Shown piece by piece: positions 17,373 to 63,674 of a stretch of 63,802 nucleotides of DNA. This DNA is from Callorhinchus milii (taxonomy: Eukaryota), in contig NW_024704757.1 in the NCBI RefSeq assembly GCF_018977255.1, positions 12,586,199 through 12,650,000 of the forward strand. Direction: 5' to 3'. Below the pieces are notes generated by a model, which saw only the letters and a list, made by a program, of their open reading frames with translations, was not told the origin of the DNA and did not search any database. The position numbers and the translations under genes are program-made. How positions within the stretch are numbered: position 1 is the stretch's first letter; every line of letters begins with the position of its first letter.

Positions 17373-17597
<225 letters not shown>

Positions 17598-18355: not shown

Positions 18356-18706
18356 GGAGTCCAATAGCTCAGTGGTTAGAGCACGCGCCTCGCAAGCGAG
18401 AGACCTGGGTTCGATTCCTGGCAGGGCGAAACATTGGGCAAGTTTCCTTACTCCACACTACCTGGCAGTAAGTACGAACCCGGTTGTTAGTCGATTGGTG
18501 GATTGTTTTTCTGGGTGTAACATTCCTTAAAAAATAAATAATAATACATTGGTCACTAAATCCACGACTGTCTGTGGGACGCTGCTGTGCGCAATTGGCT
18601 GCCGCGTTTCACCAACAAATATACAGTCAATTCACTTTACAGTATATTGCGTGAAGAGCTTTGACACGTCTTGAGGACGTGATGAGGCATTATATCAAAT
18701 GCAAGG
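18356..18706 (+). mobile_element. tRNA-derived SINE, long subfamily, tail truncated
   Basis: A box, B box GGTTCGATTCC and central extra segment. Ends at ATCAAATGCAAGGA against an antisense L2 fragment. Confidence 0.88.
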
Positions 18707-18709
18707 AAG

Positions 18710-19620: not shown

Positions 19621-19647
19621 AGCTGGGAATTAAAGATGTGCACATTA

Positions 19648-19881
<234 letters not shown>

Positions 19882-23748: not shown

Positions 23749-23933
23749 GAAATCGGCCCAAGGGGGCTGGATTCAGAATCTCAGAAAGTTACACCAAGCT
23801 CAAAAAGGACAAGTTAGATTGAAGGACTTTCTTTCTGCTGGTTAGGAGTTGGCTTGTGGGGGTGGGTGGGTGGGAGTAGGGGAGGGTTTGGATTCCGTAC
23901 AGCTACAAAACATGTGATTGTTGGTCTACTGTC

Positions 23934-24257
23934 GGAGTCCTGTAGCTCAGTGGTTAGAGCACTCGCTTTGCAAGCGAGAGACCTGAGTTCAATTCTAGGC
24001 AGAGGGCGAAACCTTGGGCAAGTTTCCTTACTCCACACAGAGCCTAATAATAATCCCTCCAAAAACAAAAAACAATAATAAATTGGTCATTTTCAATCTA
24101 CGACTGTTTGTGGGACATTGCTGTGCGCAATTGGCTGCCGCGTTCGCGCACAAATATACAGTCAATTCACTTTACAGTGTGTTCTGTGAAGCGCTTTGGG
24201 ACGTCCTCCCGAAGTGAAAAGCGCTATATCAAATGCAAGGTTTATTATTATTATTAT
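23934..24257 (+). mobile_element. Full-length tRNA-derived SINE, short/young subfamily
   Basis: Near-identical to 11162-11486. Lies about 330 bp upstream of the CLEC19A ATG. Confidence 0.92.
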
Positions 24258-29813: not shown

Positions 29814-30010
29814 TCACGTCACTTCCAGCGACGCAGGCGAGACCCGGTCGCACTCGGCGCGGGATCGCAAGCTGTGCCATTGCTCCGACGAGGTCCGATG
29901 TAAGCTAAGCATCCGCCGCCAGTGGTTGGATTCCGGGGCCCCTGTGGAGTATTGGCCGATGACAATCCTGCCGACAAAATCATTGCTGCTCTTCATGTTG
30001 TGACCGTAAA
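29814..30010 (-). CDS. SYT17: Synaptotagmin-17 coding exon 8 (last)
   Basis: Acceptor ccttacag. Encodes (V)YGHNMKSSNDFVGRIVIGQYSTG...WHSLRSRAECDRVSPASLEVT*, the characteristic SYT17 C-terminus. Confidence 0.96.
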
Positions 30011-30132
30011 CTGTAAGGAAACCGAAACACAGCCGTCAGGACAGTAGATTTCAACGGAGCAACTCGTAGGTGTAAATTAATCTCAGTTTACTCTTTACAA
30101 ACTCTTTACTCTTTGTGGTGTCCCAGTTGATA

Positions 30133-30360
30133 AACAACAACAACAACAACAACAAGATTCCATTTATAAAGCGCCTTTCACGTCAGGAGGACGTCCCACA
30201 GGATGTCGAGGATCAACATTTAACAACAATAACAATCCTTGCGTTTGACACAGCGCCTTATCACGTCTTCGAGACGTCTCAAACCGCTTCACAGAATATA
30301 CTGTGAAGCGAATTGACTGTATATTTTGTGGGCGAAACGCGGCAGCCAATTGCGCACAGC
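30133..30360 (-). mobile_element. L2 tail followed by a SINE 3' fragment
   Basis: (AAC)n plus hairpin at 30133-30200, then an antisense SINE tail at 30222-30360. Confidence 0.75.
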
Positions 30361-31747
30361 AACGGAGATCTGAGTTGGATTCTGATAGGAAAAAGGAAGT
30401 AAGAAGCCCACTGAAGAGGGTCACAGGACATCAATAACAACTTGCATTTATGTAGCGGCCTCCACATAGAGCAATATCTTGGAGCACTTTACAGTGGCAA
30501 GGAATGGACCTGGAGCGGGGGGGAGGAGAGAAGAGGGGAATGAAGGACCACCCAGATTGTGAAATAGAATCCACCTTGTGAGCCAATATTTACAAGCAAC
30601 GTGAGCTAATTCCTTCGATGGATTGAGGACATGTGTTCCCACTGTTCCGATTTAGAGCATTTTCACCTGGTGCTACACTAGTACAGTTATCATTGTGTTT
30701 GCAAATTCACTGAAAATAACTTTCAGACAGGCCAAGTTAACCGGACTAATTCTTAAACCGTGCCACGTGGTAAGATTGCTCGGTCGGTTAAAGAGTGACG
30801 AGGCTGCCAAAGTTGAGTTTCAACCAATCGTGCAGCTTTTTTTCCGATTGTCCCCAGTGGATTCCGAGATACAGATGGTTGGTAGCTGCTAATCCTGAGG
30901 AATTTAGCAGCCAAATACAAACTCTTGACCCTACCAGTCACATTTATCAGCAATCTGTTAGAACACATTGCCGAAAGCTGTGTACAGTCAAACGACATCT
31001 AATTTAAAGTGAATAGCTATTAAACACTAAACGTAAGGATGCCCGACTCTCTACTCCATTTGCCGAAGTTACTGGCATTGAACACACATTTCTAAGAGAG
31101 CACGCCTAACTATATCTCGGGCCTCAATGCTCAACTTCCCAGTGACTGATTCAGGAGTGAGATATAAACAGAAACTTGGGATGAAGTAGTCTGTCCCCCT
31201 CTGTTGGCTGGAGAAATGATTGGGGAGAGAGTTAAATTATAAAATACATTGAAAGGCAGGAGAAGGAAAAATAAAAGGGGAATAATTCATGGATTTGTTA
31301 CAGAATAATTTTTAGGTTTAATCCCAAACCACCCAAGCATCTCTCCGGAATAAATCCACATTGATATATTTTTTTAAACATATGTTCTGTGATAGAAATA
31401 TCCTGTGAAGCGCTTTGAGATGTCTCAGTGACATGATAAGGCGCAATATCAAATGAAATAATTATAACTGTATTCCAATGTTGACCTTCCGCTTAGGTAT
31501 GGGAATGGACATCAGAAATCTAGGCTTAATCCACAGAATGAGGAAACGTTAAGAACTATTAAGGGAAATTAATTCGGACAATTGCAATGAAGGAAACACG
31601 CACCCAAATTGGGGACAATAAATTGGGACATTGCTTGGTGAATGGTTCTAAGGTTGAAATGTGACCCTTACAGTTGGTGGGATAGCAACACCAACAATTA
31701 AAACCTCTGCTGCCCTCAACAGGTCTCATTTTGAAATGCGGGACCTT

Positions 31748-31964
31748 ATAATAATAATAATAATCCTTGCATTTGATATAGCGCTTTTCATGTCGGGAGG
31801 ACGTCCCAAAGCGCTTCACAGAACACACTGTAAAGTGAACTGACTGTACATTTGTGGGCGAACGCGGCAGCCAATTGCGCACAGCAATGTCCCACAAACA
31901 GTCGTAGATTGAAAATGACCAATTTATTATTGTTTTTTTTTGTTTTGGAGGGATTATTATTAGG
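31748..31964 (-). mobile_element. 5'-truncated young SINE
   Basis: Matches the 3' two-thirds of 23934-24257 and lacks the tRNA head. Confidence 0.88.
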
Positions 31965-34900
31965 TGTGATAAAGTGCTGAAGTATTCTCAAATAACGCAA
32001 GCTTCGCACCGAAATGAGAATAAAGAACGAAAGACCAAGCGACGGCACATTGCAAAAGAAACCAACTGTTAAATAAAAACTGCAACAACTCCAGAACTCA
32101 GTTCAAGCTCTATTCAAGGATCGATAGCGACAGAGTCAAAATGAAATACGGGCACTTTCAAAGCAAATCGTTCAAGAGAATAGCTTCTGGACGATTCATT
32201 CATTTAGCTTTAGTGGGGCCTTAGGATACTGAGGTTTCCTTTGCCATTGTCGCTGAAGAAAATACTGAACCTCTCAAGCGTTTGGTGGAATTGAGATATC
32301 ATAAAAATAATATTCACCCACAAAATACACAGTCACTACACTTTACAGTAAACTTTGCGACGTCTCAACAATTCGATAAGGTGCTGTACCAAATGTCAAG
32401 ATTATTATATTTTATTATTATTATAATTGACCCACCGGATAGCAGGAAAAGAGCAGACAAACATTAGGACGGGAGAACTCAGAAAGATTTTTTTGACTTT
32501 AATTTGGACATTTGTGTTTATTGTAATGTGTTACGGCTCATATTACAGTAATAAAGCTGTCCTGATGTTTGAGTGATTGTTATTGCTGTTGTATTAGTGC
32601 TAGCAGCTGGTTAAAGAGTGGCAGTGGAAAAAGATTGGGGACAAACCTCCAGCCCAGCTTCTGGGCGAGAGAATGATTGACATTAATGCAGGAAGATGTA
32701 TGAGCAAAACGAGAAAACAGTGCACGTTTCTGGCATCCAGATGGTGTGTTATTAAATATGGATTTGTGCCATTGAATGAACCGATGATAAAGGTGAAGCT
32801 AAGCCAAATGTTTGCCTGTACTGTTGACCTAAACACGGCTTATTCAGCAGTTCAGAACAGGCTTCGTTCGTTTAGGATCAGATCAAGGGAAAGACCAAAT
32901 CAAACTGATTTCTTATTGAAATGTCCTGCGACATATATACACACTGTTACATTTGCCTGCAAAATGCACAGTCACTACACATTGCACTTTATCTCGTGTC
33001 TGCCCGACGAGAAAGGCATTCTATAAAATGTAAGGATTACGTTTCTGATTGTATTAAAGGAATACTTTTATTCACAATACAGCTAAACATTAGACTTAAC
33101 TTGATTTTTTTTAAGTTCAACTTTGCCTCAAATGTACCAGTTTAAAAATATAGTATGTAGTAATATTCTTAAACATGTTAACAAGTTAATATATTGTATA
33201 TAACATGCTATCAAGTTAATATATTGTATATATTCATTCTATATATACATATATAATTAATATAATTGCGTGAGGAATTTGCTGCCGCATTTTGCCCACA
33301 AAATATACAGTCAATTCACTTTACAGTGTATTCCGTGAAGCGCTTTGAGATGTCTCAATGACGTGATAAGGCGCTATATCAAATGGAAGGATTATTATTA
33401 TTATATAAAGTTGGAGTGATGTGCTGGCATCTGAACCAAAAGGAGATGAACAAGAGTTTGCACAAGAACCAAAGGCTTTTTTTCCAGCTCTGCTTTGAAA
33501 GCCTTTGCATTGTAGGAATTTTAAAAAGATTGTAGGCGAACCTAGGTATGATCAGGATACCGTACATATCTATTTCATTTCAGTTTAGGTTAATTTAATC
33601 TTTGTAATGCAGTTAGTTCTCGGAAGCTGTGGTCATAATTTCATTACAGACCTCGGAAAGCAAAAAAAAAAATCAATGAGCAGTGTTTTACTATCCAATT
33701 TCTCTATTTGTGCTGAGATTTGGAAGATGTAAAATGTCAAGCATAATTAAATAGATGCTTGCCACTTAGATAATGCATAGAATAAAATTTACAAATCATA
33801 TCCATTGTAACCATTAATAATCCCAAATTGCTATTTAAATAGCTTCCTTGCCGCAGTACAGAACTAGATTGGAGTCTGCAGCATCAGAATATGTAATAGC
33901 AAGGATAATGTTACATTGCTTATCCTCGTGCGGAGAATGCGTGATCATGTTTGATATGAATAGACAAGAAGGATGGAAGGATAGCCTATCGTACGATGCC
34001 ATTATTTTCTGCTCAAATTACAGTATTCAGGTATCAGATCTTTGCAGAAGGCAACAAAGGATGTAAGTGGCACTGTGTAGCTTCACCATGTTGAGCACAG
34101 CTTTTCAATACTGCAATAGGTTTAGTGTTTAGTCGTCTTGGACATAGTTTCTCCCATGTCCCCCCAGATAAAACTGGCCATTCACTTCATGGCTGTTAGC
34201 GGGACATTGCTCTGAATACATTGTCTGCCACATTTGTCTATAAAATGCACACAATCACTACACATTACAGTATATCCCGTGTCTGCCCAACAAGAAAGGG
34301 GCTTTTTTTTAACCATGGTACATGAAATTGCTGAAAGAATTAGCAAGGGCACAAACAGCAAATCTATTAATAAGGTTCATATCAAATGTAAGTATTACGT
34401 TTATGATTTTATTAAAATTAATTTTGCTCAAAATAATGAGGCCATCTACATTTCAATCCCCAGAAGATACACTGATTATAATAAAGCAAAAAAAATCATT
34501 TCTAATCCATCAATTTTTCTTATAATCTTACTATATTGATATTCCTGACACCTTTTCCTCTCCTTATTGACATCTGAATGGTTAATAATTTGTGTATTTT
34601 AATACAAAATTAGGAAGAAATTGCCCCCAAAACTGTCTTTCTCTCAGTAAGTCCTAATAACACATCAAATGAAGATCATGTGAGTTACTGTTGACGTACT
34701 GAGAATGCTGCTTTTTAGTAGTTTCTATTGCCTAACATACATTTTTTTTGTACCATGATACATAAAATTGCTTAAAGAATTAGCAAGGAAGCAAACAGTG
34801 AATCAATTAACAAGGTTCATTAGCTCTCGCTAATAAATCTGTTGAACTCAACGGGGGGTTTGTTTATTTATGGTTCATGGCTCTTTAAACATAATCTCTC

Positions 34901-37699
34901 TCATTTACCATCTTTAAGAATGAATTGTGCAGCATTGTAAACAAACCAGAACCAACGATATCTCAATACCATTGGCTACTTTCGTAAGACTTAGGTTTTA
35001 AGGTTTGTTAGCATTTGACTCCATCCTTTCATTAAATGCAATAATGATGTAATGAGATAATATAATGCATTGTACTTATTCTCTTGATGTAAGGTATTCA
35101 GTTTTCAGCCGTAAATATTCTGCCACCTGAGTTGTTGCACAACGAGCAGTTAGAATAGAGCCCTTTACAGAGGAGTAATGTGATGGATGTGATTTAATGA
35201 CATTGCTTTTTCTGATACCATAAACATAGAATATGTTGTCGTTTGTGCGGGGGTGGTGGAGCAGGGAGCAGCAGCTAGAAACGGAAATGATATGATTCAA
35301 GTCACAATTTCCAGAAAGTCTTTACGAGAATTTGTATTGCATCTGTTGACAAGCTTCGACAATACCATTCACAGTAGCTTCTTCCTACAGTAAAACTGTC
35401 ACTTCTGTAACTGATCGTATTTTTTATGTTGGAAGAATCAAAGGACTTTGCGAATCACCCATACAGATAATCTTACTGAAAGCTATCACAAAGCCTCTAG
35501 TTTAGGGTTAGAAAGTGAGGATATTATATCCATATTGTATGAGGACATTACAGTTGAGTTCAGTGCTCTCAAAGAAGTCTCATTTGGAATCATTTCAGAA
35601 AATAAAGGAATTTGATCCGAGCAACTATATCCAGAAAATAATAATAATCCTTGCATTTGGAGGACGGCACCTTCATCAATGCAGCCCTCCCCTGGCATTG
35701 GAATGTCACCCGCCCTGGGCTATGTGAGCTCCACTGCTGTACAGTATGACCGTAGAGATTGGAAAGATTGGCAGCTGACCCTCAACGTTTGGGGTCCTGA
35801 ACTCTTGGAGAAAGGTTAACAGCCATTTACCAATTTAATAGGACGGGTTTTAATGACACCCTATGGGTTCAGTGGAATGCTCTGCAAACATAAACTTGTA
35901 TTGATTTCATTCAGTTCACTCTGCTTCCCCACACTAGCAACTGTTTGCCTTTCAGTGCTCCATTCAGAAAACGCTTGACTCTACATATTAAAACGTCCTC
36001 ATTGGACACGGCGATGCTAACAATGCTTGACGTACAAAATGTTTGGTGTGTGCTACGGTTCAGCAGGAGTGTTTCGGATAGAAAACCTAGTGTCACAGTA
36101 AATACAGTGTTTTAATAAATTCTAGTGTGACAGGTTACAGTGGCTCACAGTCACAGCTGAGTCGTCAGTAGCCATGCAATTGTCCTCTCCATCACCTAAC
36201 GCCCACTAAAAGAAACCGTGCTGCTGGCAACAATTCCACCAGCCATTAATAAATAATTCTCCCAAGCGTTGTGAAAGATTTTGGGCTTCAGGGGGATTTT
36301 TTTTTTAAACTTTAGTGATACGTTGCTTTTTCACCTTTATCATTGCAGATATGGATTTCTGCTAGGTAATTACAGAGATTTTTTGAAGTAGGTTAAAAGC
36401 TAACCCGCTTGTCCTAAGTGATTTGCCAGTACACCATTCCTGGTTTTCAAAACCTCACAAAATTGGTACATCTGACAGTATTGTTCTGGGTTTACTTTCT
36501 TAATGCTATATAGTAAAATATTCCTTGCTTCTAATATTACGTCTTCTCAAATCAAAGTGCCTCAAAAGAGCTTCAGAGAGTTTTTCTATAAAGCGTACTA
36601 TGTATTTTTATTAATCCTTGCATTTGATATAGCACTTTTCACATCTTCCAGACGTCTCAAAGTGCTTCACAGCGGCAGCCAATTGCACACAGCAGTGTCC
36701 CACAAACACTCGTGGATTGAAGTGACCAATTTATTATTTTTTTAGGTGAATGAGGCAGCCAATTTGCTTAGAGTAATTAATGCCCCACAAACAGCCATAA
36801 AGTGAATTAACTACCTGGGGGATAGTTGGACCAGGACATCGGGTAAACACCTTAGATAAGGTCTATCATGTCTTCTCTGAGACATTTCATTTCAAAACTG
36901 AAGAGCCCCAATTTATCTGATCTTTCCACAGAACTGATCCTTCGAACACATTGCCTCCACTGCCTGGCAAACCCTTTATGTACAGTGAGGTTAGTACAAA
37001 TTATGATACTGACAAACTGATTAGACTGTCAGCCTAGACTATGTGAGCTAAGCAGTTTATAGAAATCTTGATCCGTGTAATTTGCCCATCGCAAGGACTT
37101 ACTTTTTTTTCACGTACAAAATTCAGTATATTTCGCAGCAAATCCCGTGAAGCGCTTTGAGACATCCTCCTGTTGTTAAAGGTGCTACATCAAAAGCAAG
37201 GATCATAATTATTTTTAAATCTTTTCACAAAACGCAATACTTTTTTTTTCCACTTGGAAAATCCCAGCTGTATGAACTAAACCCTCTTTTCTAATTGGCT
37301 TTACATTACTTGATGAAAAAAAACATTTGATGTAGACAAAAGACTTTTCCCCTAATGAAACACGTGCCCACTGCAAACAAATTCATACAAATTGCAATCA
37401 GTGAAAAACAAAATCTTGGGTTCAGCATAAATCAGTCGGAGAGAATCAACAGAACATCATGCGACATGAATACAAACAAAGAATCCACAAGTCTCTGGCA
37501 GTGATTCCAATAGCTTAAACTTTGCTCCTGGATTTAAAACTCAACACAAGACCCTTTCTATTTGCAGCATTGTGTAGAGATGCGATCAATATCCAAATTT
37601 GACTGGTTTACTCCTTCACACAATTTATATATCACTGCAAACTTTTCAAGACTAGAAATGATGTAGGCCAAATATCTCATGATAATGTAATGCAGATGT

Positions 37700-38080
37700 C
37701 AGCAACATAGCGCTCAATGGGTAGCACTCTAGCCTCTGGGGCAGAAGGTTGTGGATTCATGCCTGATATTGGGATGTTATTTTATAACCTAGGATGATAA
37801 TTTAGTATGGAGCGGGGGGTTGGCTGTGTTTTTTTTGTCGGTTGTAACATTTTATTTTAGACAGGGCCATAGCCATTAAAAATCGCATTTGAAAAGCGAG
37901 AGGGGTTTCTCCTGGTGTTAATATGGACATTAATCCTCCATATTAATTAATCATTCACCTCTTGGCTGTGTACAAATCGACTGTTATGTTTGCTGCAAAA
38001 CGCAGTCACGACACGAGACAATAGTTAACACGAAGCTTTCTGAGACATTTTGACATTATATGAGGTGGAAAGACGCAAGT
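37700..38080 (+). mobile_element. Highly diverged ancient tRNA/Deu-type SINE
   Basis: Head GCTCAATGGGTAGCACTCTAGCCTCTG...AGAAGGTTGTGGATTCATGCC and tail GCAAGTTCTTTCTT. Antisense relatives at ~7300-7480 and ~57600-57895. Confidence 0.5.
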
Positions 38081-41000
38081 TCTTTCTTAATGCAGCTTTA
38101 ATTAAAAGTCAAGCAGAGCAGCATTGCACACCTGGAGAGGGATGTCAAGTGTGGTCTTAGAAAACTGCCAGGAAACTGCTAACCGTTCCATCGTGCAACG
38201 TGTAAAAAAACAGAAAAATCTGAAGAACTGCTCAAGAGGTTCATAGTGAGCATAGACTAATGTGGTTAGGAAGAGAATTGGACTGGTCAGGAAGCAAGGC
38301 AGTTGTTCAGTGTATACAGTGAGAGCAAGAGAACTTTAAACATTGACTTCTGTCCCATGAAGACAATCTAAACTAACACAGTGGCACAGTATTGCATAAG
38401 GAAGCAGCCTGGAGGGATGCATTTTGCTTACTTAATTCCGGAAAGTATTAGGCGCAGGTTGGCAAGACCCCAGAGTGCGAGTTGGGGTCCTGCTGCAGGC
38501 TAACCAGCTAACATCACATAGCTTGCCATTGATATTGCTATAGTAGGTTTTTTTTTTAAATTGATAGAAATAGCCTGAAGAAAGATCTTTGAAGTTGATC
38601 ATAATTATTGTTTTGGGATTTTGATGGGGAGGTAGCGTTTATAGTCTTTTGAGCATTCTCCCACAGAATTTACAGTCAATGTATTTTGCAGTATATTCTG
38701 TGAAGCGCTTTGAGACGTCTCGAATTCGTGATAAAGCGCTACATCAAATGTGCGGATTATTATTATCATTCTTTGCTTTTTTTTTCCCAGCACTGTGAGA
38801 ATCTGATTCCAGGTGATGGAAAGACAATGGAACATCAGTAACAGAACTGGCGTGAAGGAAATTACAGCACCAAAGATGTCAGGGAGTTTGAACTAACTTA
38901 AAAGAGGTGAAATGTCAAGTATCAGAAATCCTGGAAGTGCAGGACACAGAACACAAAGCCGTGATTGATTCCGGTGATGGATGCCATCGTGGTTTATTGG
39001 ATTATTCGGAAATTAAATATTATTGCTTTGTTTACACAGCGGACAGATGTTAATGGTCATCACTAATTCAGATTGATATAATATTCCAGCAGCTGCCTAC
39101 AAAAGCACAGTCACTTCGCTCAGGAGTGCTGAGAGACATGATAAGGCACTATCGAAACACGAGTTCTTTCTTCATCACGACGTGGAGCATGACATTGCGA
39201 AGGATCCTCCTCCATGGGGTTTGATTCGGAATTAAGTGGCACAGTTAGCACTTGAGGCTATTCCACCAATCTCTCCAATCCAGCGCATCAGGGGATTTCA
39301 AGGAGCTGTGACTTGCAATGACTTTGAGCTGAACGGAGGAAGATGGCTGGTCACACATCATTGTAGACAGCAGGCTGATGATGGGAACAAGCTGCGTGGC
39401 TAACTGTGCTCAGCCAACTCGCACGTTTTAACGCACAAATGCGTCTCTGGTATGACAACATTCAGCACATTTTTGGTGACAAAGCAAAGTGCTGCCAGTG
39501 CTGGGAAACTGAAGGGACCGACAACTCTCGATTTCTCTGTCTGATGTGCTTTCTTCAACGTCTGTCTGGGTATCTTTTCAAATGTTTTCAACCATCTTTA
39601 AGGTGTTTTTTTTTGGGATCGAGGATTGTCGCTAACACTGTCCTCTTTTCTCTCCCCCAGCTGTGTTCTCAGATGCTTGATCTTCATTGCTGGGAGAGTA
39701 CAGGGCTATTTTGTCTTCTCTTCTCTTGCTCAGACTCAACAATCCATCAGGCACAGCAATGAATCATTGGAGTCGGAAAAAGTCAGCCGTGAATTTGGGT
39801 GTGAATAATCATCGGTGCAGCTATCGATATGTGGTTTTCAGTTGGGAGTCATCTGAGGAGGATATTTATTGCAGATTACTACATAGGATATTCAAATAAG
39901 TCATTGCATTTAAAACATGTGCGGATTTCATGTAGGCAAGAGTATGGTAAATGTATTTTGATTATGCTATGGAGAGTGATACCAGGATCCGTGTTCATTG
40001 GCTGCATACATGTGAATGAACTACATATATACAGCGAATGACTCAGTGTAGCATAGAAGATTTAAAAGCTTACCATAATGTAAGGAGTCACTGCATGGGC
40101 TTCCTCCTGTTTGCCAGTCAGGGAGCTTCAGTTCTTCTGCGAGTGGCACATCTCTAACCTTGACCTTCCTTTCCAGATCTTTACTACAGGTCAATCTTTG
40201 ATGGCAATAGACCTTGAAGGTCACTCAAAACTCAAACTCCCCTGATAAGATGGAACGCTTTTTTCATATCAAAAATATCTTGCGCTATTTTAGTCCAGGC
40301 AGCCATTTCAATCCACACGACGAGTTATATTTCATTTGGGGAAGGTGGGGACTGCAAATATATGATAACTTCTTGGACTGAAACATACTGTGAAATGTGA
40401 CTTCTCGATTTGAATGTTATCTTCCGCACTTTACCATCCGTGAACCAGACTCGTTAACAAAGATTGGCCTCTTTGAAGTGGTGTTCAAGTGCTGGATTTC
40501 CATAATTTCTTCCAATTTGTTGTTTGATGGCCTAATGTGCTACCAGCAGTCAAGCACCAAGTGGGTCGTTCATTTATTTTGGCGTCAACTTGTATCGTTT
40601 TCTGTTTCTCAAGGAATTAAGCAGTGAAACTTGCGGCAAATCTCTGATTGAGCATCTTGTGAATATCACAGGGTTTCTCTAAGGAACCTACTATTCAGAA
40701 ATTGAATGGCTTGAACCAACAGTTACTCCTAGCGCACAGCAAATGAAAACTTGGCCCTATTATTTTTTAAAGCTGCTCTGATGTGCACAGAATTTCCTCT
40801 TGCTGTTAGCATCAGTGACCGACATAATCAGTCAGAGTGCTACTAATCACTAGGATGCTGCAAAGGTGGAGAGAAAATCAAACAGAATTTAATTATAGTA
40901 ATTTTATCAAAGGAAATACTAGCGTTTGCAGGCGGGATTGGCACTGTTGAGTCGCAGATGTTTTTGTTGGTCAAAGTTTGTTAATAAGTAAATTTGCAAA

Positions 41001-41421
41001 ATATTAACTAATCTGTTGTAATTTTATTTTGCATTTGAGAACATTCTTCTGACGTGAAAGGCGCTGTATCAAATGCAAAGATTATTACTATTCATTTTAA
41101 ATGAAACACATTAATGTCATTCATCTAAACACAAGAACACTAATGCATTCAGGTGCAAAGGTAATAAAAATCCAAGTATTTAATAAACAGGATCATAATT
41201 TTTATTAGATTTTACGTTCACTTCTATTGCAACAGATATTTTAGCAAAATTGAATTCCTTCAACAACAATAATAAATACCAATTAAAAGAGCTCTTTGTG
41301 GGGGCGAAACGGCTTTGAGGGACAGATAGGATTCATAACCAATTGAGAAAATGGATGGATATATAATTTTCATTTGAGCAATTATTATTTGAAAATCAGA
41401 AATGACACTGTGCAGTCTTAC

Positions 41422-41577
41422 CTGTGTAAACTAAGCTGATATCTTCCAACTCTTCAGATGGAACTTTGAAACTAAAGGATTCATTGTAGAACGGGTCTAT
41501 GGTTCCCTTCATGCAAGATGTCTTTTTGGTTTTCACCAATTTTAATCCGTGCACCAGCTGAACTTTCACAAATGGAT
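41422..41577 (-). CDS. SYT17: SYT17 coding exon 7 (C2B)
   Basis: (D)PFVKVQLVHGLKLVKTKKTSCMKGTIDPFYNESFSFKVPSEELEDISLVYT. Boundaries ctttag|AT and G|gtaaga. Absent from the ORF track. Confidence 0.95.
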
Positions 41578-41789
41578 CTAAAGAGTATAAACATAAAAGA
41601 AGATTAACCTCATTATAGCCTAGAATATCTTACATGAATCATATAAATAGCTTTCACTGCCAATTTTGTTTTATTATGTGTATTAAATTATTAGTTTAGA
41701 ATAGTCTTAAAACACACAAATCCTTACCAGTTTATTGTGTAATACAGTTGGCATTAACGGCATTTCGATTGACAAAGCTTCCCACTTAC

Positions 41790-41910
41790 CTGATCCTTGG
41801 CTCATATCTGTCTGTAGAAGCTGTTTTGCCCTAATGATATCCACATTTAGCCTTCCTGCACTTGGCAAATAATTAAGAGAGATCAGTAGCTCCCCTAGTT
41901 CCACTTCATT
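41790..41910 (-). CDS. SYT17: SYT17 coding exon 6 (start of C2B)
   Basis: NEVELGELLISLNYLPSAGRLNVDIIRAKQLLQTDMSQGS. Boundaries ccatag|AAT and G|gtaagt. Confidence 0.96.
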
Positions 41911-43683
41911 CTATGGGGAAAATAAATACAAACAGAATATCAAACACTGGTGGATATTATCAGCAAATATCCTCATACATCCTCATGAGGGATACCTTGT
42001 CTTCACAGGCTGGATATAAACAATTGCATTGATATCTTCCACGTGGACAGTTATATATTCACACTCAAGCATAATAATAATAATAATCCTCACATTTGTT
42101 GTAGCACCTTATCACGACTTTGTAACATCACAAAGCACTGCACAGAACATACTGTCAAGTGAATTGACTGTATATTTTGTGGGAGAAACATGGCAGCCAA
42201 TTGCACACAGCAGTGTATCATGGATTGAAGTGACCAATTTATTATTTTTTTGCATACAGTAATTAATGCCCCACAAACAACCATGAAGTGAACTACCTGG
42301 GGGATAGTTGGACCAGGACATTGGGTAAACACCTTATATAAGGTCTATGAGGTCTTCTCTGAGACTACTGCAAATCACTGCAAACAAAATTGATCCGTAA
42401 GCAAGACCCAATTCCAACTTGTCACAGAACCGCTCGCCTGATTTGATGCTTTCTTTTCGAAATCTCAGAAGAAGTCGCAGAGCCTAGGACTGACTTATAA
42501 TCAATAGCATTGTCTGACTGACTGGCTAAAGGTTCTTTAGGAGCTGAAATTTCACTGCATCTGGTGTGTGTTTCAAAATATATTGTCAAATTGCATCACA
42601 ACACTTCACTGAAATGTTAATTATGATCAGACATCTTTCAAAAGACATTGGCGCCATATTCTTTGCTTTGATGGACACAACAGCTTGTCATGTCAGAATG
42701 TCTCAAAGTGCTTCACATACCAACTTACTTTGATTTATACGAAGAGCAACAACACTCACATATATCAAACATCATTGGCAAAATTGACTGATCAGTCTGC
42801 GCTTAGCCATTCTGAATTTTTATTAAAGAGTAACTAATTGAATAAAATGTTAGTAAATTCCATAGTGCAGTGGCAGAATAATGGGTGACGAAACACCCGG
42901 GCAAACTAAGTTTACGGAACTCGGCATGTGTTTGTTAGGATACATTATTCACAGATTGTAAAAATACCCAAGTCAAGAAAAGAGCATTAACATCACCTGA
43001 CCAGTGGTTCATCTTTTTCTAAACAATTCTTGCACTTTGGTCCTTCCTGATTTCACATAAACTGTCGGCAACAAAAGGAAGTGCAATTCCTCGATTCACA
43101 TCCAGGCGAACTCACCAAATAGACCTCTCAACATGGAAAGACATCAATCCCCCTTGACAAAGCTAGTTTTTTCAACCATTAATGATTTATTTTTCCTTAT
43201 TTGGTTAAGGTCTGTATGGTCATTGTTAATATAGTGATTCAGCTAACAATCTGACATATTGCTGTGTCCCACATGTGCTGTGCGGAAATTAACTGGCCCA
43301 TTCGCTAACAAAATGCTCTACACTTTACACTAAACCCTGTGAAATGCTTTGAGTTGTCCTCCTGAAGTGAAAAGGCATATTAAATGCAAGGATTATTATT
43401 GAGTATTCTTATTGATTAAAGAATAGTAATTAAAAATCACACCACTTCTACCAACCTGACTAGCAAACATGACCTAGTAATCGGCACACAACACACACAC
43501 ACACAAATGTAACCAATGTTTGCACTAACCTAATTAGGACGTATGCCACATCATTAATGCTATTGAACCTGGTATTTTCACTGATGTAACCAGCAATTAT
43601 GTTCCAACTCATACTCAATGCCACAAAATAGTATTCTACGATTGATCAGACATAAAAACAAATGCACAAATTCGCACAATTAC

Positions 43684-44306
43684 CTGAGAACTTGGAACTA
43701 GTGCCTTCCACCAATGTCCACCTTTTACCAGGTCAACTTCGTTTAAAGACATTGCAACTTTCCCAATAACACAATGACGTGAAAATTTATCAAAGTCAAC
43801 AACTGTTAAAAGGAGAGTCCTTCTCTGCGTTTCTAAAAAAGGAACTTCAAACGTGTAGCGTTCCTCAAAAACCGGGTTCTGAGTCTTGCGTTTGACTCCT
43901 GTTTGCCTTGAGTTCTTCTGATCTGGTAGGAGGCACATCTTGACGTATGGATTAGAATGAGCCATATCTTGTCTGGAACCATCGTATGAGATAGGAGGAG
44001 GCAGATCCCTGGCTTCGATCACCCGCACTGTCAGATAATTATGCAGGAGGTCGTATTGAGTGCTAAAGTGGAGCATGCCAAGCTGATACCTGGACAGAAT
44101 CTCCTCATCGGTCAAAGAGTCCACATCGTCACTGTTTGAATCAACAGAGTAGAGTCTCGGTTCAAATTTCCGGAAGTAGTCCTCGGGAGCATATGGTTTC
44201 CTGAATACTTTAGGTTGAACTATTTCCTTCTTCGATCCAATTGTCCAAAACTCAATAGGTTTGATGTCAATCAGCGGAGAGCTCGGGCGTCTGGACGTCT
44301 CTAGAT
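43684..44306 (-). CDS. SYT17: SYT17 coding exon 5 (linker plus C2A)
   Basis: LETSRRPSSPLIDIKPIEF...LGMLHFSTQYDLLHN...NPYVKMCLLPD...VVDFDKFSRHCVIG...WWKALVPSSQ. Boundaries ctgcag|AT and CAG|gtaatt. Confidence 0.97.
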
Positions 44307-44729
44307 CTGCAGGATTGGGGAATTCAAACAACAAAAGTAAGTCATGAAACAATTCACACAGTGTTACTTACACTGAACAAATGGTCAACTGAACAGGCGG
44401 AAAAAACGGCTGCACAATATTCCAACTTTAATTCTTCACATCCGTACTTTCATTTTGAGATTCTGAAAACTGTTGCACCTTGTTAGTTTTCCTTTATTAG
44501 TCAGGGGCAATTTTACTCCTGTCCAGTTTTCTTCGCTGAAAGGATACAGTTCCATAGGTTCCGATCACCCTTTGGGACTTCACCCAACTGCCCATCCTCG
44601 ATGTGAGCATTTGGCTATGATTGTTGGCTAGTGATTCAACTGTGGTGGGGGAGTGAAGGGTCGGAATCACAGGTAAGCCTGTTATTTGCTCACATGCATT
44701 GACTACAGTTGCTAGCAGAAGTATATACC

Positions 44730-44872
44730 TTGATTGATTGTTTGATTGTTTGATTGGTTGATGATTGATTGATTGATTGATTGATTAATTGATTGATTGA
44801 TTGATTGATTGATGGACAGGTTGACTGACTGACTGACTGATCTATTGACTGATTGATTGACTGACTGATTGA
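44730..44872. repeat. (GATT/GACT)n tetranucleotide microsatellite
   Basis: Direct reading of the sequence. Confidence 0.92.
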
Positions 44873-45589
44873 CACCAAGGCTAGTCGCAATGTCCTAACT
44901 GCTGCACTGACTGGGATCAGCAATGGATAGCACAAAGTTTGCAGTGAGTTAAACTAGCTATCATTGGGTGAGAAGCACAAACCTCATGAGCGGAGCCTTG
45001 GGGGATGGTTTTTAAAATATGACTCAAACCAAAACCATAATAAATTACTGGTTTAAAAAAACGCACATGGAGTATAAACGTTGTAGGTATGTAATTCCTC
45101 CTGCGTATTCATTATTCTTCGCACAATCAGGTTCTGTTTTGCATGACTCATCATATATCCTCACAGGACATACCGCAGTTAACCAACAAAAACAAGAATA
45201 ATCAGTGCCTTCAGCAAATGGTATGTTTAAACTGCTAAAACAAGGCAACAATGTCATGGTATCTAATTCCTACAATCCTTTAGATTCCCTAGAACTCTCA
45301 CATTTCTGGCTTTGTGCCCTCGACTAGATTCTTACAGATCCCATTGTGGGATTTAGGTATTAATTCTTGGATTAGTCAGAAATATTACTCACCTGTGGAA
45401 TAAACTGCAGGTAAACAGCCCACAAAATACACAATCAATCCACTTGATAAAATATTGTTTGAAGCGCATTGAGACGCCTCAATGAAGTGATAAAGAGCTA
45501 CATCAAATGCAAGGATTATTATTATATAAATTATGATGTACATTTAACGTAGAGGCAAAGCCAAAGTGCTAAATGTGCTCGGCTCTTAC

Positions 45590-45735
45590 TCGAAATTCGT
45601 CTGGTCAGGCTGTAAGTGGAACGTGATGTATCTGAGGATCTCCGTCTATCAGAAGAGCTGCTTTGAGGAGTCTGCGGAGGGTCACTACTTGCACTGTCTA
45701 AATCTGCCTCCTGGTCATTGGTACGATCGCTTATC
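45590..45735 (-). CDS. SYT17: SYT17 coding exon 4
   Basis: ISDRTNDQEADLDSASSDPPQTPQSSSSDRRRSSDTSRSTYSLTRRIS. Boundaries aaccag|G and A|gtaaga. Phases 2 and 1 fit the neighbouring exons. Confidence 0.93.
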
Positions 45736-45954
45736 CTGGTTCACAGAAGAAACACAGAAATTAATCGCTGCAATTTTACGTGTGTTTACCGCACAGACGT
45801 CTGATCAATCTACTTTACAACAAAGGCCTGAAAGAGCTCTCTTATATCACGAATTACCCTTGTTCCTGTTCATATTTTACCTTTGCCTTTGTCTGCCAAG
45901 GGTTCTGACCCTTTGGTGCCATAAAGGAACTTCTTCCCCAAACAGCATCCACTC

Positions 45955-46513
45955 TAAGAGTAGGAAGTCTACTGTATAGGGCCTTGGTGAGACCGCACCT
46001 AGAGTATTGTGTGCAGTTTTGATCTCCTTATTTAAAAAAGGACATACTTGCCCTAGAGGGGGTGCAGCGTAGATTCACTACGTTATTTCCTGGGTTGAGG
46101 AGACTGACCTATGAGGATAGGCTGAATAAACTAGGGCTATATTCTCTAGAGTACAGAAGTATCAGCAGAGATCTTATTGAAACATATAAGATTCTTAAAG
46201 GGCTGATAAAGTAGACACTGAGGGTCTGTTTCCCCGGTAGGAGAATCTATAACCAGGGGTCACAGTCTGAAAATTAAGGGTCAGCCTTGAGGGTAGTGAA
46301 TTTATGGAATTCACTACCTCAGAAGGCTGTAGATGCTCTTCAAGGCTGAGACTGATAGATTTTTTAAAAAATAGAGGGATTAGTAGATATGGGGATAGGG
46401 CAGGTAATTATAGTTAGGTCAGAAGATCAGCCGTGATCTTATCGAATGACGGGGCAGGGCTCGAGGGGCCGAATGGCCTACTCCTGCTCCTAATTCTTAT
46501 GTTCTTATGTTCT
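45955..46513 (+). mobile_element. CR1 LINE 3' fragment
   Basis: Translates to [35 protein letters not shown], the CR1 ORF2 C-terminal motif. Ends in GGGCCGAATGGCCTACTCCTGCTCC and (TTCTTATG)n. Confidence 0.9.
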
Positions 46514-48746
46514 AATGGAATAATTTTTCAAGCACGTGTCAGGCCTGGAGCAGCTTATATCTTTCCTTCGCGCGCACACACACACACACACACACACCTG
46601 GACTGGGCACACTTAAACATCATGTGTGAGTGATGCTGGCGTGGAGAACAGAAATTCCTGTTTGTGGGTCCATTGTTTTGAAAGAAAACTTCTAGATTCG
46701 CTACGGTAACAGACAGCGACTAAATCTTGCTACCTCCTTAAATGGGATTTATTTGCATCTCTTGGTGAAAATAATTCATATCAATGACCGGCGCTTCTAA
46801 CGAGAGATGTATTGGCTTGCAAGCCAAAGTGCACACGGTCAGCTCGAGGGCATAGTGCACAGCTGTGACCCATGGCGTCCTTGAAATTGTTCAAAGCTGA
46901 TGTTACAACTCAAATAACGGGGCACTACGGAGCTTGACTGTGGCTGAATTAGTCCCACATAGCTTCTGTTTGGCAAGGATTTCTCAGAGCACGGCACAAC
47001 TCCCTTTAAAACCAGGCCTAATTGCTCGCTGTGTGCTAAAGGGACCTCTTCCATTACTATTACGTATGTCGTGTGGGGTCGTAACAGTGTCACAGAGTGC
47101 ACACTTCTGACACTGTACTGCAGATTGCACGGTCCCATCAAAAATGTGCTCCAGATTGGATGTTATTTTAACGGTAATGATGGTATCATCGTTGAGAAAA
47201 ACTTTCAGATAGGATTTTCAAGAGCTCACAGTGTTTTCGGTGATTGCTCCTGCAGGCACACACAGCAGCAAGATCTGCACATAATGAGTCATAAACTGCA
47301 TCAAATTATCGCCGGTATCACGCAGGGAAACAATGCTTCAAATGATACCTCCCAAGCTTAAGTATCACAGATTGAACTGGAGTCTTAATATAATGTGTTA
47401 TTTGTGTTATTCGTCTACGCTGACTGAGTTACGCTTGCTTCTATTTATGAAAGCATTTCAATTGATACCCCTACTTTTTTTTTTGGGGGGGGGGTGGTGG
47501 GTGGGGTGGGGGTGGGAATCTTCACAACAAATAAGAGAGAAACTTTGCCCCAATTGTATCACATCGCCATGTATTTATGCGACGGGCTAGGTTTAAATAG
47601 CAAGTACAGCGAAGCTGGTGAATCAATGAAATTAGAAGTAAATCATGCTTTAGGATACTATCGTGGATATTGAAGCAATCTCTTTTGAGCTCATCAGCAA
47701 ATGTGTTTGAGCGACAGGTGATTCAGTGGTGCTCCCAAGCATTCAGAATACAGGCTTCAAAAACGGTTGTGCATTTCCAGCACAGTGTAGCAAAAGGAAA
47801 TTATTCAATGCAAAGATGCGTGGCCACATTATATTAAGATCAAACACATTAGAAACACATACATACAACAAAAACAACAGCAACTTGCACACACGCACTG
47901 CACGGTACACAAATGAAGAAACACACAGAAATACACTAAACATGATTCCTCCAAACACACACACAAACCCTTTTTTTAGCAATTTTCATCCAAGGCATTT
48001 TCGAACTCTCTACGACAAGTAAATCACATTCAAGGGTTGTTGTGCATTCAATTTTAATATCCTTCTAAGAAATGAGCTCAGCTTAATCTCATTCATTTTT
48101 GAATAGGACTGTTTTTTTCCCCCCCAATCGGCCTCTGTGCATCTCAGGGTATTCAAGGAAAACGGTGTGGGTGGGTTTGCAAATTTGCCCGGCTGGTATT
48201 CTCATCGACTCTCACCGCGAACTGCACACAGCCAGACCTACGCAGAACGTAATATTGTACATGCAATTCTTTTCATCCACATCGCTGCAACAGGTGATGA
48301 ATCGAGATGTAATGTTAATAGCGGCCACTGTGCATCAAGTCAAAGTACGGGTCTGTCTGCTCACAGGGGCCTCACGTATCACATAACATCACATCCATTC
48401 GGACATCACACAGCAGTGACGTGGCATTTAATGCCTTTACCTGCAGGACTGTGCTAACTGAATGAAACAAGCCTGACAAGCCTGTATCTGCAGGACTTTG
48501 CTAACTGAAACAAACCGGGACTAATAGAATAAAACAAGCACAGCAACAAATCGCCCCGTTACCTCATTTCCACATTCACACACTCGCCAATCACACAGTA
48601 AGGCAGACACCACTGAATAATAAGTTAGGCTCTGGAGCACCTGTTACACGCATCAGATCGAGACGCCGTGTTAAAGAGAAAATGAATGTGTTTCTTTTAA
48701 TAAAACACACACACACACCTACACACACCCACACAAACGCACTTAC

Positions 48747-48895
48747 AGCCAAGGTGGTGTCTGAGCAGGAAACGGTCCTAAGATTTCCACCTCATCTTCA
48801 CTGGTCTGACAGCAACTGCAGTCATAACACTTTTCACAACAATTCCTGCAAGTCCATCTGCACAGAAGAAAATCTGATATTCGAGAGAGAAACCC
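48747..48895 (-). CDS. SYT17: SYT17 coding exon 3 (cysteine cluster)
   Basis: GFLSRISDFLLCRWTCRNCCEKCYDCSCCQTSEDEVEILGPFPAQTPPWL. Boundaries aaacag|GGG and CT|gtaagt. Confidence 0.96.
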
Positions 48896-49335
48896 CTGTT
48901 TTCACGTGGGAGAAATGGGGAAACAAAGGGAAATTAACAACAACCTGGTATCTTACTGTATATGCTATACATCATCAGTGCTCTCATTGTAGGCTGACAC
49001 TGGCAGCTGATTTCAGCTTCTCTTGTTAGCTTTAATGTGCTTTCTTACACCATCGCTGCTTACAGCCAGCACGGCAACATCCTGATGAATAGAATAACAC
49101 GGCAAAAATAAGGCGAAAATAAAGAGTTTGGCTCTCTTTTCGCAAAGGAATTACTGTTTGAAAAATGGAAATAATAAAAAAAAACTGTCTATTAAATCTG
49201 TGTCGGGACACAAAAAAAAACTACACAGAAAAAGCAAACACATACAAAAGTAAATTCCGGGTTCAGAAATTATAATTTTTGGGGGGGGTTTCTTTTAAAG
49301 AAAAATCGCATGTTATGAATAAAAGGAAAGCTTAC

Positions 49336-54922: not shown

Positions 54923-55409
54923 TTTGCTCTAAGCCACTTGTTGCCCTGGGACTGCTTATTGCCCTCAAATGACTGAGGGTGGAATAGGTTCCATTCAGTG
55001 GGATAAGCAAATCCAGTTTCTTTACATCCATCGATTAACAAAGCAAATAAAAGCACAAACAATCTCACCTTCCTGACACCAAGCAGCAGTGAAAGCATTA
55101 AGCCTGCAAGCTGGCATCTCAGAGCTTCAAGTTACAGCATTTTCTGTCTATTGACTGGATGGATCAGCTCTGACACATGGAAATCAAGCAAAATTATTGC
55201 GGTAATACCCCCAAACCCTTTCCAAGTCTCTAGTGGTTATCACTTTGAAGATACTTTAGATATTGGAGGCAAAAGTGGCGTTGCTCGGAGCATGATCTCA
55301 ACATCCTGGAAAAAATATGGGTCCTGTAATTTTCACCTTCATTTGGTTATCAAGAGAAGAACGTCTACTTTGGCTATCAAGGGAAAGAACTCTACTTTTC
55401 CTTTGGCAT

Positions 55410-55757
55410 TTACCTGCTCATACCCTCCGTTCCTCTGGCTCCGGTCTGCTCCAAATCCCCCGCCCTACCATCAGTGGCCGGGCATTCAGCCTCTCAGCCC
55501 CGAGGCTCTGGAACTCCATCCCCCAGTGCCTTCGCCGCTTCCTCCCTTTCCTCCTTCAAGGCCGGTCTCAAGAACTTTCTCTTCAACCGTGTCTTCAGCT
55601 CCACTCTCGACTCTCTACCCCCTCCTCGCTCCCTCCTTTCCCTCCCCTCACCCTGACCATTCCCCCTTGCTCGGGTCCCGACCCAACTGTCCAGCGCCTT
55701 GGGACGTCCTCCCGACGTGAAAGGCGCTTTATAAATGCAATCTTGTTGTTGTTGTTG
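55410..55757 (+). mobile_element. L2 LINE 3' fragment
   Basis: PAHTLRSSGSGLLQIPR..ISGRAFSLSAPRLWNSIP and SLSSFKAGLK, then the hairpin and (GTT)n. Confidence 0.9.
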
Positions 55758-57060
55758 GTATCAATTCTGTTTTTAAATGCTCTTTCCAGGCTGCTAACTC
55801 TTGATTCAGAAAACCGATGATTTATAATTTTACACTGTAGGGTAAGACTCCCTAACTCATTGACACGATACAGAGAAAGTACAGCTACATTCAACATTGT
55901 TCTCAAAACCTTGTTACATAGGAAAGTCTATGGAATATGATTTATGTCCCAATGGGATAACCTTATAATTATAATAAATATAAATAAAAACAATCCTTGC
56001 ATTTGATATAGTGCTTTATCACGTCGTCGAGACGCTTCAAAGCGATTAACAGAATATACTGTAAAGTGAATTGACTGTGAATGTTGTGGGTGAAGAACAA
56101 AATCAAGAACCCACATCCCTTCAGCCGTTACTTGAGTCTTCCATCAGTCCTGTGGTTGCAGCACTCAATGAGGCAGAAGAGCATTCACAAACCTCGAGGG
56201 GGAGAGAGAGAGAGAGAGAAATGACGACACCAAGGCAAACGTTGTCTTGTTGCAAAACACATTGCACATCTGCCAAAGTGATACCCATACCCACTTTGCT
56301 ACAGACCTAAAACACCTTTCCTCTCCAGCTGATTGCATGTTTCTGAGAGGGCTCCGAGAGGGAAATAAAAGGGGAAAAATAAATCCAGGCACAAAAAGGA
56401 AAAAGCAAAGTAAAAGCATTCTCACTTTCAATCCAATGCCTCTTTCTGATGGGAAGCTAGCAACTGAAATTCAGCAATATTTCTTCCCTGAAGCAAGTAA
56501 ATCTTATTAACAAATTAGTTTGTAAGATCTAATAGGTTGGTCTGTCTACCCACACAATGGTACATTTCATCCACTGAGATTTTACATAATATTAAACCAT
56601 CTCAATTGAGGTATCATATTAATATATGTAGATGAAAGGTGACACCACCTGAATGTTGAGACAGAGGTCAATGTGTCTGCCTTATTTTTACTATTATAAC
56701 ACCTCCTGCGGTGTTAAACAACAGCTGCTGCCGTGGAACGAAAAAGGACTTTATATGCAGCAGTGCATTTATCAAAGTCTATTTTCTTACCTGCTAATGG
56801 AAAATAGATCCCACATGGTGTTTCATTCAGCCATCACATATTGGAAGGTTTACAGTACCTTCTGTGTAGGAGCATTGTTTTTGTTGCAAAAGAATTACAT
56901 ATAATACTCCTGATGTCAAATATACATTGAGAGAGAACTAACAGGTGGTATATTTAATGTCAATGGTGTCTGGTAGAGGAGAGTGAATTAAATATTGATT
57001 TGAGTTGGGACTGTAATGTGAAAAGAATTTGCTTTGTGTTTTCAGGTAAAAGAAGCTTTT

Positions 57061-61530: not shown

Positions 61531-62272
61531 TTAGTGATTCCTTGGCAAGTGTTTATGATGAGTTAACTTCATCTTTAAATGTGAACAGTTCCACGTCTCC
61601 AAAAGTTGAACCGAAACCAGATCCAGCAGAGCAGCATCGAATCCAGCCAACAAGTTGACTGGCAAGGCTTCCTTGATCTGCCTGGGCACTGTCAAAAAAT
61701 CCGGCACCTTTTTATTCCCCAGGAAAAAGTGCATCAGTCGCTGCTGCCTCAAACGTTCCCTCCAGAACCTGACCATGTCCTCTAACCTTTCCATCAGGAA
61801 CCTCTCGTCCCAAGCCTCCAACGGGCCCTTCAGCACCAAATAGAACATAGCCGTTTTCAGGTTGTGAGAGGAGAGCACCGTGCTCCACTTGGCGGAGACT
61901 TTCTTCCCCAGGTCCTTGCAGCCCACGTCCCGCAGTGCTTTCAGGACCTGGAGGCACTTCAGGTGGCACGAGTTGGCGGGAGTTTGCTCTTTGAGCCAGT
62001 TCAGGAGCTTCTGCTCGTGTTTGGGCAAATAGACGCGCCAGAGAGCTTCTGGCTTTGCATGGGCGGGAGTGGACCCGGGTGGCTCTGGGCTCCGGGTCCT
62101 GGTCCAGGGCTGAGCCACCAGGAAGACCGAATCGCCCACGTGCACAGCCGGGATCAGCCGGACGGACATGGCGATGTGACAGCAAACGTAGTCGGACTTG
62201 GGCAGGAGTTTGAGGGTGAGGCTGTCGTCCTCCACAGACAGTGTCATGGAGCATCGTTCCTGACAGCGATAC
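61531..62272 (-). CDS. ITPRIPL2: ITPRIP-like 2 (Mab-21/cGAS-like fold), coding exon 2
   Basis: (R)YRCQERC...CCHIAMSVRLIPAVHVGDSVFLVA...EALW...EQKLLNWL...LKCLQVLKALRD...LSSHNLKT matches the recalled ITPRIPL2 C-terminal half. Acceptor tttcgcag|G. Confidence 0.9.
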
Positions 62273-62731
62273 CTGCGAAACACACAACATATACAGTCAA
62301 TCCACTTTACACTGTATCCTGTGAAGAACTTTGAGACGTCTCGACCACGTGATCAGGCGCTGTGTCAAACTCAAAGCATTATAGTGGGGTCCCGTGAGGC
62401 AGCGGTTGGCACCCTCTCGCCTCTGTTTACCCAGCGGGTAAGTAGGAACCCGGTTGTTAGTCGATTGGCGGTTCGCTTTTCCGGGGGGTAATGATACCTC
62501 CGAAAAAACGAAACAAACAAATCCGGTCACGCAATCCGCAAGTGTTTGTGTGGGGACACTGCTGGGGGCAATTGGCTGCCGCGTTTCGCCCACGAAATAC
62601 ACAGTCAATCCACTTCACGAAGTGATCCTGCGAAGCAGTTCAAGACATCTCGACGACGTGCTAAGGCGCTGTACCAGACGCGAGGTTATTATCATCGTTA
62701 TTATTATTATTAGGAATTATTTCCGATTTAC
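62273..62731 (-). other. 459-nt GT-AG phase-2 intron of ITPRIPL2 made of two antisense SINE copies
   Basis: Removal joins LSVIR to YRCQERC, colinear with human LATVRYSLEGRC as recalled. + strand SINE 3' fragment at ~62281-62382 and degenerate long SINE at ~62384-62712. Confidence 0.85.
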
Positions 62732-63674
62732 CTGATGACGCTCAGGCACCTTTGCATCTTGGCGTGGAACCACTTGAGCACCAGGGAGGAGGAGAGGGCC
62801 AGGCAGAGCGCCTTGTCAGGCCGAGGGGCACAGAAAGTGTGGCTGAAACTTTTGCAACGCTTGCCCCAACCCTCAGGCTTCTTGAAGCCGCCGGGGGGAG
62901 AAGAGGGGGAAGGAGGAGAAGAAGAAGAAGGAGGAGGAGAAGAAGGAAGAAGAAAGGGCTTGAGCTGACAAACAGCGGCTCCACACAAGTGCTGGGGGAG
63001 CTCTTGTGTGTCCCCCACGTTGGACTCCAACTCAAACGCGGGTTGAGGGCACCAGACCTGGGGCACTCTGATGGGGACGAGCAGGTCGAAGCCGTTGTGG
63101 GGGCTGTGGATTTTGTGCTGCTCGTAAGCGCTGCCGATCTGCACGAAGTCCCGCGGAAGGTCAGAGTCGAGTCCTCCTGGGCTTCGCGTTTGCCCACCCT
63201 GACCAGCTGGCCGACGATCTGGGTGACGTGAGCCTTGCTGTGCCCCAGGACGTGAGGAGACACTTTCATCTGCTGGTCGTAGTAAGTCTCCAAGGCGCTC
63301 CTCCTCCCGTCCGGGCCGAGGTCAGGGCACGGGCAGTCGCCAGCCGGTACCTGGGCTCGTGGCTTCCCCGTCGGACTCGCCTGGAGTCTGGCGGTGATGG
63401 AGGAGGAGGAGGAGGTGGTGATGGAGGTGCGGCACTTGATGAAAGAGTAACAGACCAAGAAAGCGGCCGACAGGCTGAAGAGAGGCAAGGCACTGGCTTG
63501 GCTGTGGCTGTGACTCTGACCCTGACCCTGCCCCTGCCCGTCCAGGTCAATGTCCAGGGTTCCTTCCACTTGACCAGCCTGGCTCTTCAGGGCTCGATGC
63601 AAACACAGCAGAGCTGTGCCACAGCAAGTGGCCAGCAGCCAGCACACCCTCACGCTCGGGGGATAAACCGACAT
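62732..63674 (-). CDS. ITPRIPL2: ITPRIPL2 coding exon 1, with an apparent 1-nt frameshift at 63150-63152
   Basis: MSVYPPSVRVCWLLATCCGTALLCL...LETYY...SPHVLGHSKAHVTQIVGQLVR...LTFRG, then in another frame FVQIGSAYEQHKI...FDLLVP...LVLKWF. One extra G restores FRGDFVQIG and a 561-aa protein. Confidence 0.88.

Follow-up and report, generated by a model that had tools for sequence, protein, structure and literature searches.

We found that the coding sequence of ITPRIPL2 in Callorhinchus milii is interrupted by a real intron that is spliced and almost wholly SINE-derived. Our analysis indicates that this intron was probably born from the insertion of a SINE into the coding sequence. The gene lies on the minus strand of the window, by which we mean the whole stretch of 63,802 nt that was analysed, and its features are listed in Table 1.

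Table 1. Coordinates in the window of the ITPRIPL2 exons, the intron and the sequences that make up the intron
Feature	Position	Strand	Remarks
ITPRIPL2 coding exon 1	62732..63674	-	codons 1-314 and AG of Arg315; one base missing at 63149
ITPRIPL2 coding exon 2	61531..62272	-	Mab-21_C domain; ends at stop codon
GT-AG intron	62273..62731	-	phase 2; 459 nt (460 in X1, X2); spliced in X5, X8
CAG/GTA at donor	62729..62734	-	first copy of 6-bp repeat; candidate target-site duplication
CAG/GTA at acceptor	62270..62275	-	second copy of 6-bp repeat
Donor-side 19 nt outside SINE	62713..62731	-	not significantly tail-like
SINE copy A	62385..62712	+ (antisense to gene)	first ~23 nt of tRNA head, ~75 nt deleted, body, TTA tail; 83% to consensus
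SINE copy B	62283..62384	+ (antisense to gene)	5'-truncated 3' fragment, consensus 269-366, short tail; 83%
Branch-point-like TTGAC	62296..62300	-	A at 62297, 25 nt before acceptor; in antisense SINE consensus; motif match
Acceptor-side 10 nt beyond colinear SINE match	62273..62282	-	7 nt repeat SINE just past truncation point of B, inverted

The ITPRIPL2 intron is real and spliced exactly

The original prediction had described a 459-nt GT-AG segment that splits the coding sequence, and its coordinates, 62273-62731, hold. The intron falls within the Arg codon of Ile-Arg-Tyr, and on the gene strand the junctions read CATCAG/GTAAAT at the donor and TCGCAG/GTATCG at the acceptor (slashes mark the splice junctions). 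Thus the predicted CAG/GTA at both junctions was confirmed, as TACCTG on the plus strand at 62270-62275 and 62729-62734.

Sixteen sequencing runs hold all or part of the stretch, and splicing was compared in four of them (X1, X2, X5 and X8). Whether a run was RNA or genomic was guessed, and X1 and X2 were taken as genomic from their ~900 million letters of contigs. A spliced joint leading from 62269 to 62729, with 459 nt of CT..AC ends skipped, was found in both RNA-like runs, X5 and X8, which come from two studies. It was found in neither of the genome-sized runs, whose contigs cross both exon-intron borders, none of them spanning the whole intron. Both exons lie on one X5 contig of 2,524 nt. 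X5 also contains a 137-nt piece from inside the intron, at a depth of 4.6 compared with 33 for the spliced contig, which may be pre-mRNA or DNA. If the run kinds are as guessed, GT-AG ends are removed exactly from RNA and are present in DNA, as expected of a major-class spliceosomal intron. An intronless allele, considered from a word share of ~0.7 in X1-X4, was rejected, as X1 and X2 carry both junctions. At position 62683 these two runs have one extra base relative to the window, making the intron 460 nt there.

Excision is seamless, as had been predicted. All 19 aligned orthologs run through the junction without a gap, so no residue is gained or lost, and the exact spacing around the site is kept in 168 of the 189 fetched proteins longer than 400 aa.

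Over exon 2 the window matches the C. milii ITPRIPL2 protein (P0001; RefSeq XP_007891928.1, UniRef A0A4W3I6Y3) at 100% identity; this protein is present at its full length of 561 aa in RefSeq and UniProt. In the window exon 1 is out of frame through the base missing at 63149, a deletion that had gone unnoticed in the original prediction. This base is present in runs X1, X2 and X5, and the database protein is in frame. The frameshift is an assembly error and consequently ITPRIPL2 is not a pseudogene.

The C. milii protein also carries low-complexity insertions, a Pro/Ser run and Gly-Gln and Ser-His repeats (window 62860-62950 and 63490-63560), which are absent from 18 aligned orthologs; its 561 aa compare with ~485 in sharks. 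SYT17 and a C-type lectin gene are represented in the window by exons at 14004-19785 and 29817-48901, on the minus strand like ITPRIPL2, and in a protein from another species (P0244) SYT17 and C-type lectin exons are fused in one model. We take these neighbours to be SYT17 and CLEC19A, and the order then matches the human one, ITPRIPL2-SYT17-CLEC19A. This gene order suggests that ITPRIPL2 is at its ancestral locus.

SINE content of the intron and the SINE family

A profile built from three window copies of the SINE gave 44 matches, amounting to 9.9% of the window, and a consensus was built from the 42 matches outside the intron. Copies A and B account for 430 of the 459 nt of the intron (94%), all antisense to the gene, which agrees with the ~430 nt of two tandem antisense tRNA-SINE copies originally proposed. 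An equal SINE content is reached in just 0.32% of the other 459-nt stretches in the window. In copy A the initial 23 nt of the tRNA head are matched at 16 positions, which is equalled at 2 of 124,350 other places. The 29 nt outside the SINE are divided into 19 and 10 at the two ends, and 6 of them belong to the repeat.

At the acceptor end, among 915 acceptor-like 10-mers of the window, this site being one of them, a single one reached the score of the inverted 7-nt match at the 5' end of B. A similar match occurs at 1 of 35 other 5' junctions of truncated copies, and as the match was found after looking it carries modest weight. The reading of the donor-side 19 nt as a decayed SINE tail was unsupported, with 58% of 925 GTRA-starting controls scoring as well. 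We likewise found no support for copy B as a local duplication of A; all six consensus differences that the two share also occur in other copies.

The intronic copies are strongly shifted towards G/C, with 38 changes from A/T to G/C against 9 in reverse, compared with 293 against 311 in the other copies (Fisher p 1.4e-5). For this reason they cannot be dated by their divergence. The intron is part of a CpG-rich stretch, and 14 of 19 consensus CpGs are kept in its copies (62283-62712) compared with 169 of 314 elsewhere.

Full-length members of the family have a TTA tail and, as tRNA-derived SINEs do, a tRNA-like head of the tRNA-Ala type, and five tRNA matches at heads of the family were called tRNA-Ala. 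The last ~55 nt of the SINE align to two LINE-like 3' ends in the window. From protein motifs this LINE partner may belong to the L2 clade; a Pfam search of two such LINE-like fragments returned no match. Decayed LINE-like fragments lie at 2256-2696, 18637-19629 and 55296-55820, and two of them share the SINE 3' end. There is also a younger, shorter subfamily that lacks a middle segment of ~60 nt (1047-1361, 11161-11474 and 23933-24248), the heads of which were called tRNA-Ala by both ARAGORN and Rfam.

The window contains three head-to-tail SINE pairs including that of the intron, the others being at 11276-11583 and 21641-22150. Insertion into the tail of an earlier copy is common in the window. 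Candidate duplications of at least 5 nt flank 7 of 35 window copies, about twice the 8.7% of shuffled controls, and those of at least 6 nt flank 2 of 35 compared with 2.4%. Truncation at the right distance from the branch motif was seen in 10 of 34 tailed copies.

Origin of the intron

We compared the intron with six of the seven other introns in the window. These ordinary introns have junction repeats of 0, 2, 2, 4, 2 and 1 nt compared with 6 nt here, and, counting profile matches only, are 0-18% SINE compared with 83% here. None of the six is a similar SINE intron. Their SINE matches lean towards antisense, 10 of 15 overall (given by intron, 7 of 8 in four and 6 of 10 in the longest). As an argument against pure chance, just two CAGGTA sites are present in the 1,685 nt of joined coding sequence.

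Arg-Tyr codons form the proto-splice site AG/GTA, at which vertebrate GPCR genes are described as having gained introns recurrently (PMC3151243), and arrestin introns show the same site preference (PMC5501109). In these accounts vertebrate gains at Arg-Tyr and AG/GY sites are recurrent and their source is untraceable (PMC3151243, PMC5501109). In Drosophila, repeats of at least 5 bp are reported at 26% of conserved introns (PMC3443670). The exonic CAG/GTA is present because the codons dictate it, and since Arg-Tyr sites gain introns repeatedly the 6-bp repeat alone is weak evidence. The original proposal that a SINE generated the intron stands as the best reading, on the small amount of non-SINE sequence and the branch-like motif within the SINE, but the repeat counts for less than had been implied. 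Its caveat that L2-mobilised SINEs often lack duplications is softer than stated: duplications of the L2 clade are reported to peak at 3-5 bp, and those of ZfL2-1 are 5 bp (PMC4245944). The same report describes extra 5' nucleotides at about half of zebrafish ZfL2-2 inserts and no 5' inversions of ZfL2-1 in cell assays (PMC4245944). The 7 extra nt at the 5' end of B fit the ZfL2-2 type of extra nucleotides.

The most plausible course of events begins with LINE machinery, probably of the L2 type, which would have cut the Ile-Arg-Tyr codons at CAGGTA. Reverse transcription would have been primed on the gene strand and a 6-bp duplication left behind, the first copy becoming the donor CAG/GTA and the second the acceptor CAG/GTA. 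Because both copies serve as splice sites, the original codons are regained on splicing. Lying in antisense, the SINE would have brought with it a U/G-rich run as well as the TTGAC branch motif at -25; by motif match, TTGAC is the sole yTnAy motif in the 40 nt before the acceptor and is SINE-derived. In the likeliest order, the truncated copy B was the founding insertion and made an intron of ~130 nt, and copy A later entered the tail of B; alternatively, a B and A dimer may have inserted once. Such an intron would need no function, and would persist because it is spliced out.

Target-primed insertion is an established mechanism, and the tail of the SINE faces the donor-side repeat, which is the geometry that we would expect from it. 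Vertebrate introns have a minimum of ~60-70 nt. Since the 29 nt outside the SINE are below this minimum, an older intron fits only with extra deletion. On the other side, SINE homology falls short of the intron boundaries by 19 and 10 nt, and the copies, at 83% identity, are old, so that there has been time for deletions.

The main rival to a SINE origin, which we consider unlikely although it deserves the most weight among the alternatives, is that the chimaera lineage acquired an intron at this proto-splice site in some other way, whether through filler DNA at a repaired break, through tandem duplication or through an unknown process, and that SINEs then inserted and the original interior was deleted. 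It would be in keeping with the recurrent, untraceable gains at Arg-Tyr and AG/GY sites (PMC3151243, PMC5501109), with a SINE that is abundant in the window and antisense-leaning in ordinary introns, and with the 19 donor-side nt that the SINE does not explain. However, it requires a SINE to have landed 10 nt from the acceptor and the original branch point to have been lost along with nearly all the original sequence, and so few comparable stretches of the window (0.32%) are this SINE-rich.

A more ancient intron overwritten by SINEs, gained in the stem of cartilaginous fishes or else ancestral to jawed vertebrates and lost in bony vertebrates, is distinctly improbable. It is helped by the fact that the cartilaginous-fish DNA compared was that of C. 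milii only, the pre-insertion allele being seen in no cartilaginous fish. It shares the overwriting problem, however, and the split codon varies between R and K among orthologs. At the DNA level, absence of the intron was observed in one bird-like contig only, a 10.5-kb metagenome contig (L001; 85% like the chicken-cluster protein P0044) that reads in one frame through the site. More than 9 kb of this contig lies beyond the gene, which suggests that it is genomic DNA. Two proteins called on metagenome contigs, P0044 (contig of 15.4 kb) and P0110 (contig of 5.9 kb), likewise run through the site in a single frame, an indication rather than a proof that the DNA is intronless. Human ITPRIPL2 is a single-exon gene, and its coding region and those of its paralogs are unsplit; the literature on ITPRIPL2 that was searched gave no exon count.

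Shark proteins do not reveal exon structure. A metagenome scan with a protein alignment (A1) gave 68 pattern matches and no relative, and one with P0044, covering 17 of 64 parts, gave one locus among 597 matches. A search of sequencing runs with the stretch gave one organism only, and none of the runs containing it is recorded as RNA. Short exon-only fragments (none in 2,800 candidates) and a query with a sawfish protein (no DNA-called shark or chimaera frame among the matches listed, 120 of 193) were uninformative on shark gene structure. C. milii is described as having few intron changes overall (PMC3964593).

Still less probable is that a staggered double-strand break took up SINE cDNA as filler during its repair, with no LINE endonuclease and with the repeat arising from break repair; the intron would then still be SINE-derived. 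The 19 and 10 nt left unassigned at the two ends could be read in this way, and gained introns in Daphnia have been reported to carry short direct repeats through break repair (PMC3443670). However, the intact 3' tail facing one repeat, the truncated 5' end and a repeat of near-L2 length fit ordinary retrotransposition.

Finally, a disrupting insertion in a dead gene with no intron, which the original prediction had allowed for and to which the window frameshift and an in-frame stop directly after the donor might seem to point, is refuted by the exact spliced joint in X5 and X8, the X5 contig over both exons, the recovered base at 63149 and the full-length protein, and has practically no probability left.

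Relation to known intron gains

Insertion of a transposon at AGGT with target duplication is an existing model of intron gain, with cases in Oryza, Zea, Drosophila and Oikopleura (Yenerall and Zhou 2012, PMC3443670). The ITPRIPL2 intron resembles these in having an element between two AG/GT copies, exact excision and an unchanged protein. It differs in being in a vertebrate and made of a tRNA-derived SINE, and the table in that paper has no vertebrate for this mechanism. Here the AG/GT repeat is present and is longer than at the six controls but is also expected from the proto-splice context, and where the model has the element run from end to end, the SINE copies cover 430 of 459 nt.

Introners are families of at least four similar introns in unrelated genes, with similarity reaching the boundaries, and about 5% of those classified are described as coming from non-LTR retrotransposons (Gozashti et al. 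2025, PMC12130899). The ITPRIPL2 intron is likewise derived from a transposable element but is one old, compound case. As reported, the introner screen, which targets recent, similar copies, found no family in either of the two C. milii assemblies (PMC12130899). The ITPRIPL2 intron works like an introner, but an introner family, the introner-like system raised in the original prediction, is unsupported so far.

Alu intronization in primate last exons, for example in CWF19L1, also turns a SINE insertion into an exon into a new vertebrate intron. The Alu introns are described as alternative, partly retained and located in 3' UTRs (Sela et al. 2007, PMC2394776), whereas the ITPRIPL2 intron splits a coding codon and must be spliced exactly. 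The DRY-motif introns of GPCR genes and the introns of teleost MC2R and MC5R (Kumar et al. 2011, PMC3151243) share with it phase 2, the Arg of x-Arg-Tyr and an otherwise unsplit coding region, and the reported DRY-motif pattern includes Ile-Arg-Tyr (PMC3151243). In those introns the repeats are internal and no source was established, whereas the ITPRIPL2 intron is 94% element with a branch-like motif.

In the main text of a 2024 review of transposon-derived introns neither a SINE nor a vertebrate appears (PMC11282704), and a whale shark preprint (10.1101/443036) adds nothing on mechanism. In the literature searched, which left most subscription journals outside, there was no report of the ITPRIPL2 intron or of a SINE-made vertebrate coding intron.

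It is conceivable, though we regard it as rather unlikely, that this SINE is an occasional intron-maker and that several chimaera-specific introns come from it, given a branch motif in its antisense strand, apt truncation points and short duplications that copy AG/GT. If true, this would be a retroposon introner in a vertebrate, whose introns would escape published introner screens through their age or compound make-up. An antisense SINE, truncation near consensus 245-267 and AG/GT repeats make up a signature for a genome-wide test. Intron gains in vertebrates are rare and their source is usually unrecognisable; here a candidate source can still be recognised, together with its contribution to the splice signals and a target repeat, and splicing occurs. 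Should the intron be absent from sharks and rays, ITPRIPL2 would be a traceable case of a retroposon creating an intron in the coding region of a vertebrate gene.
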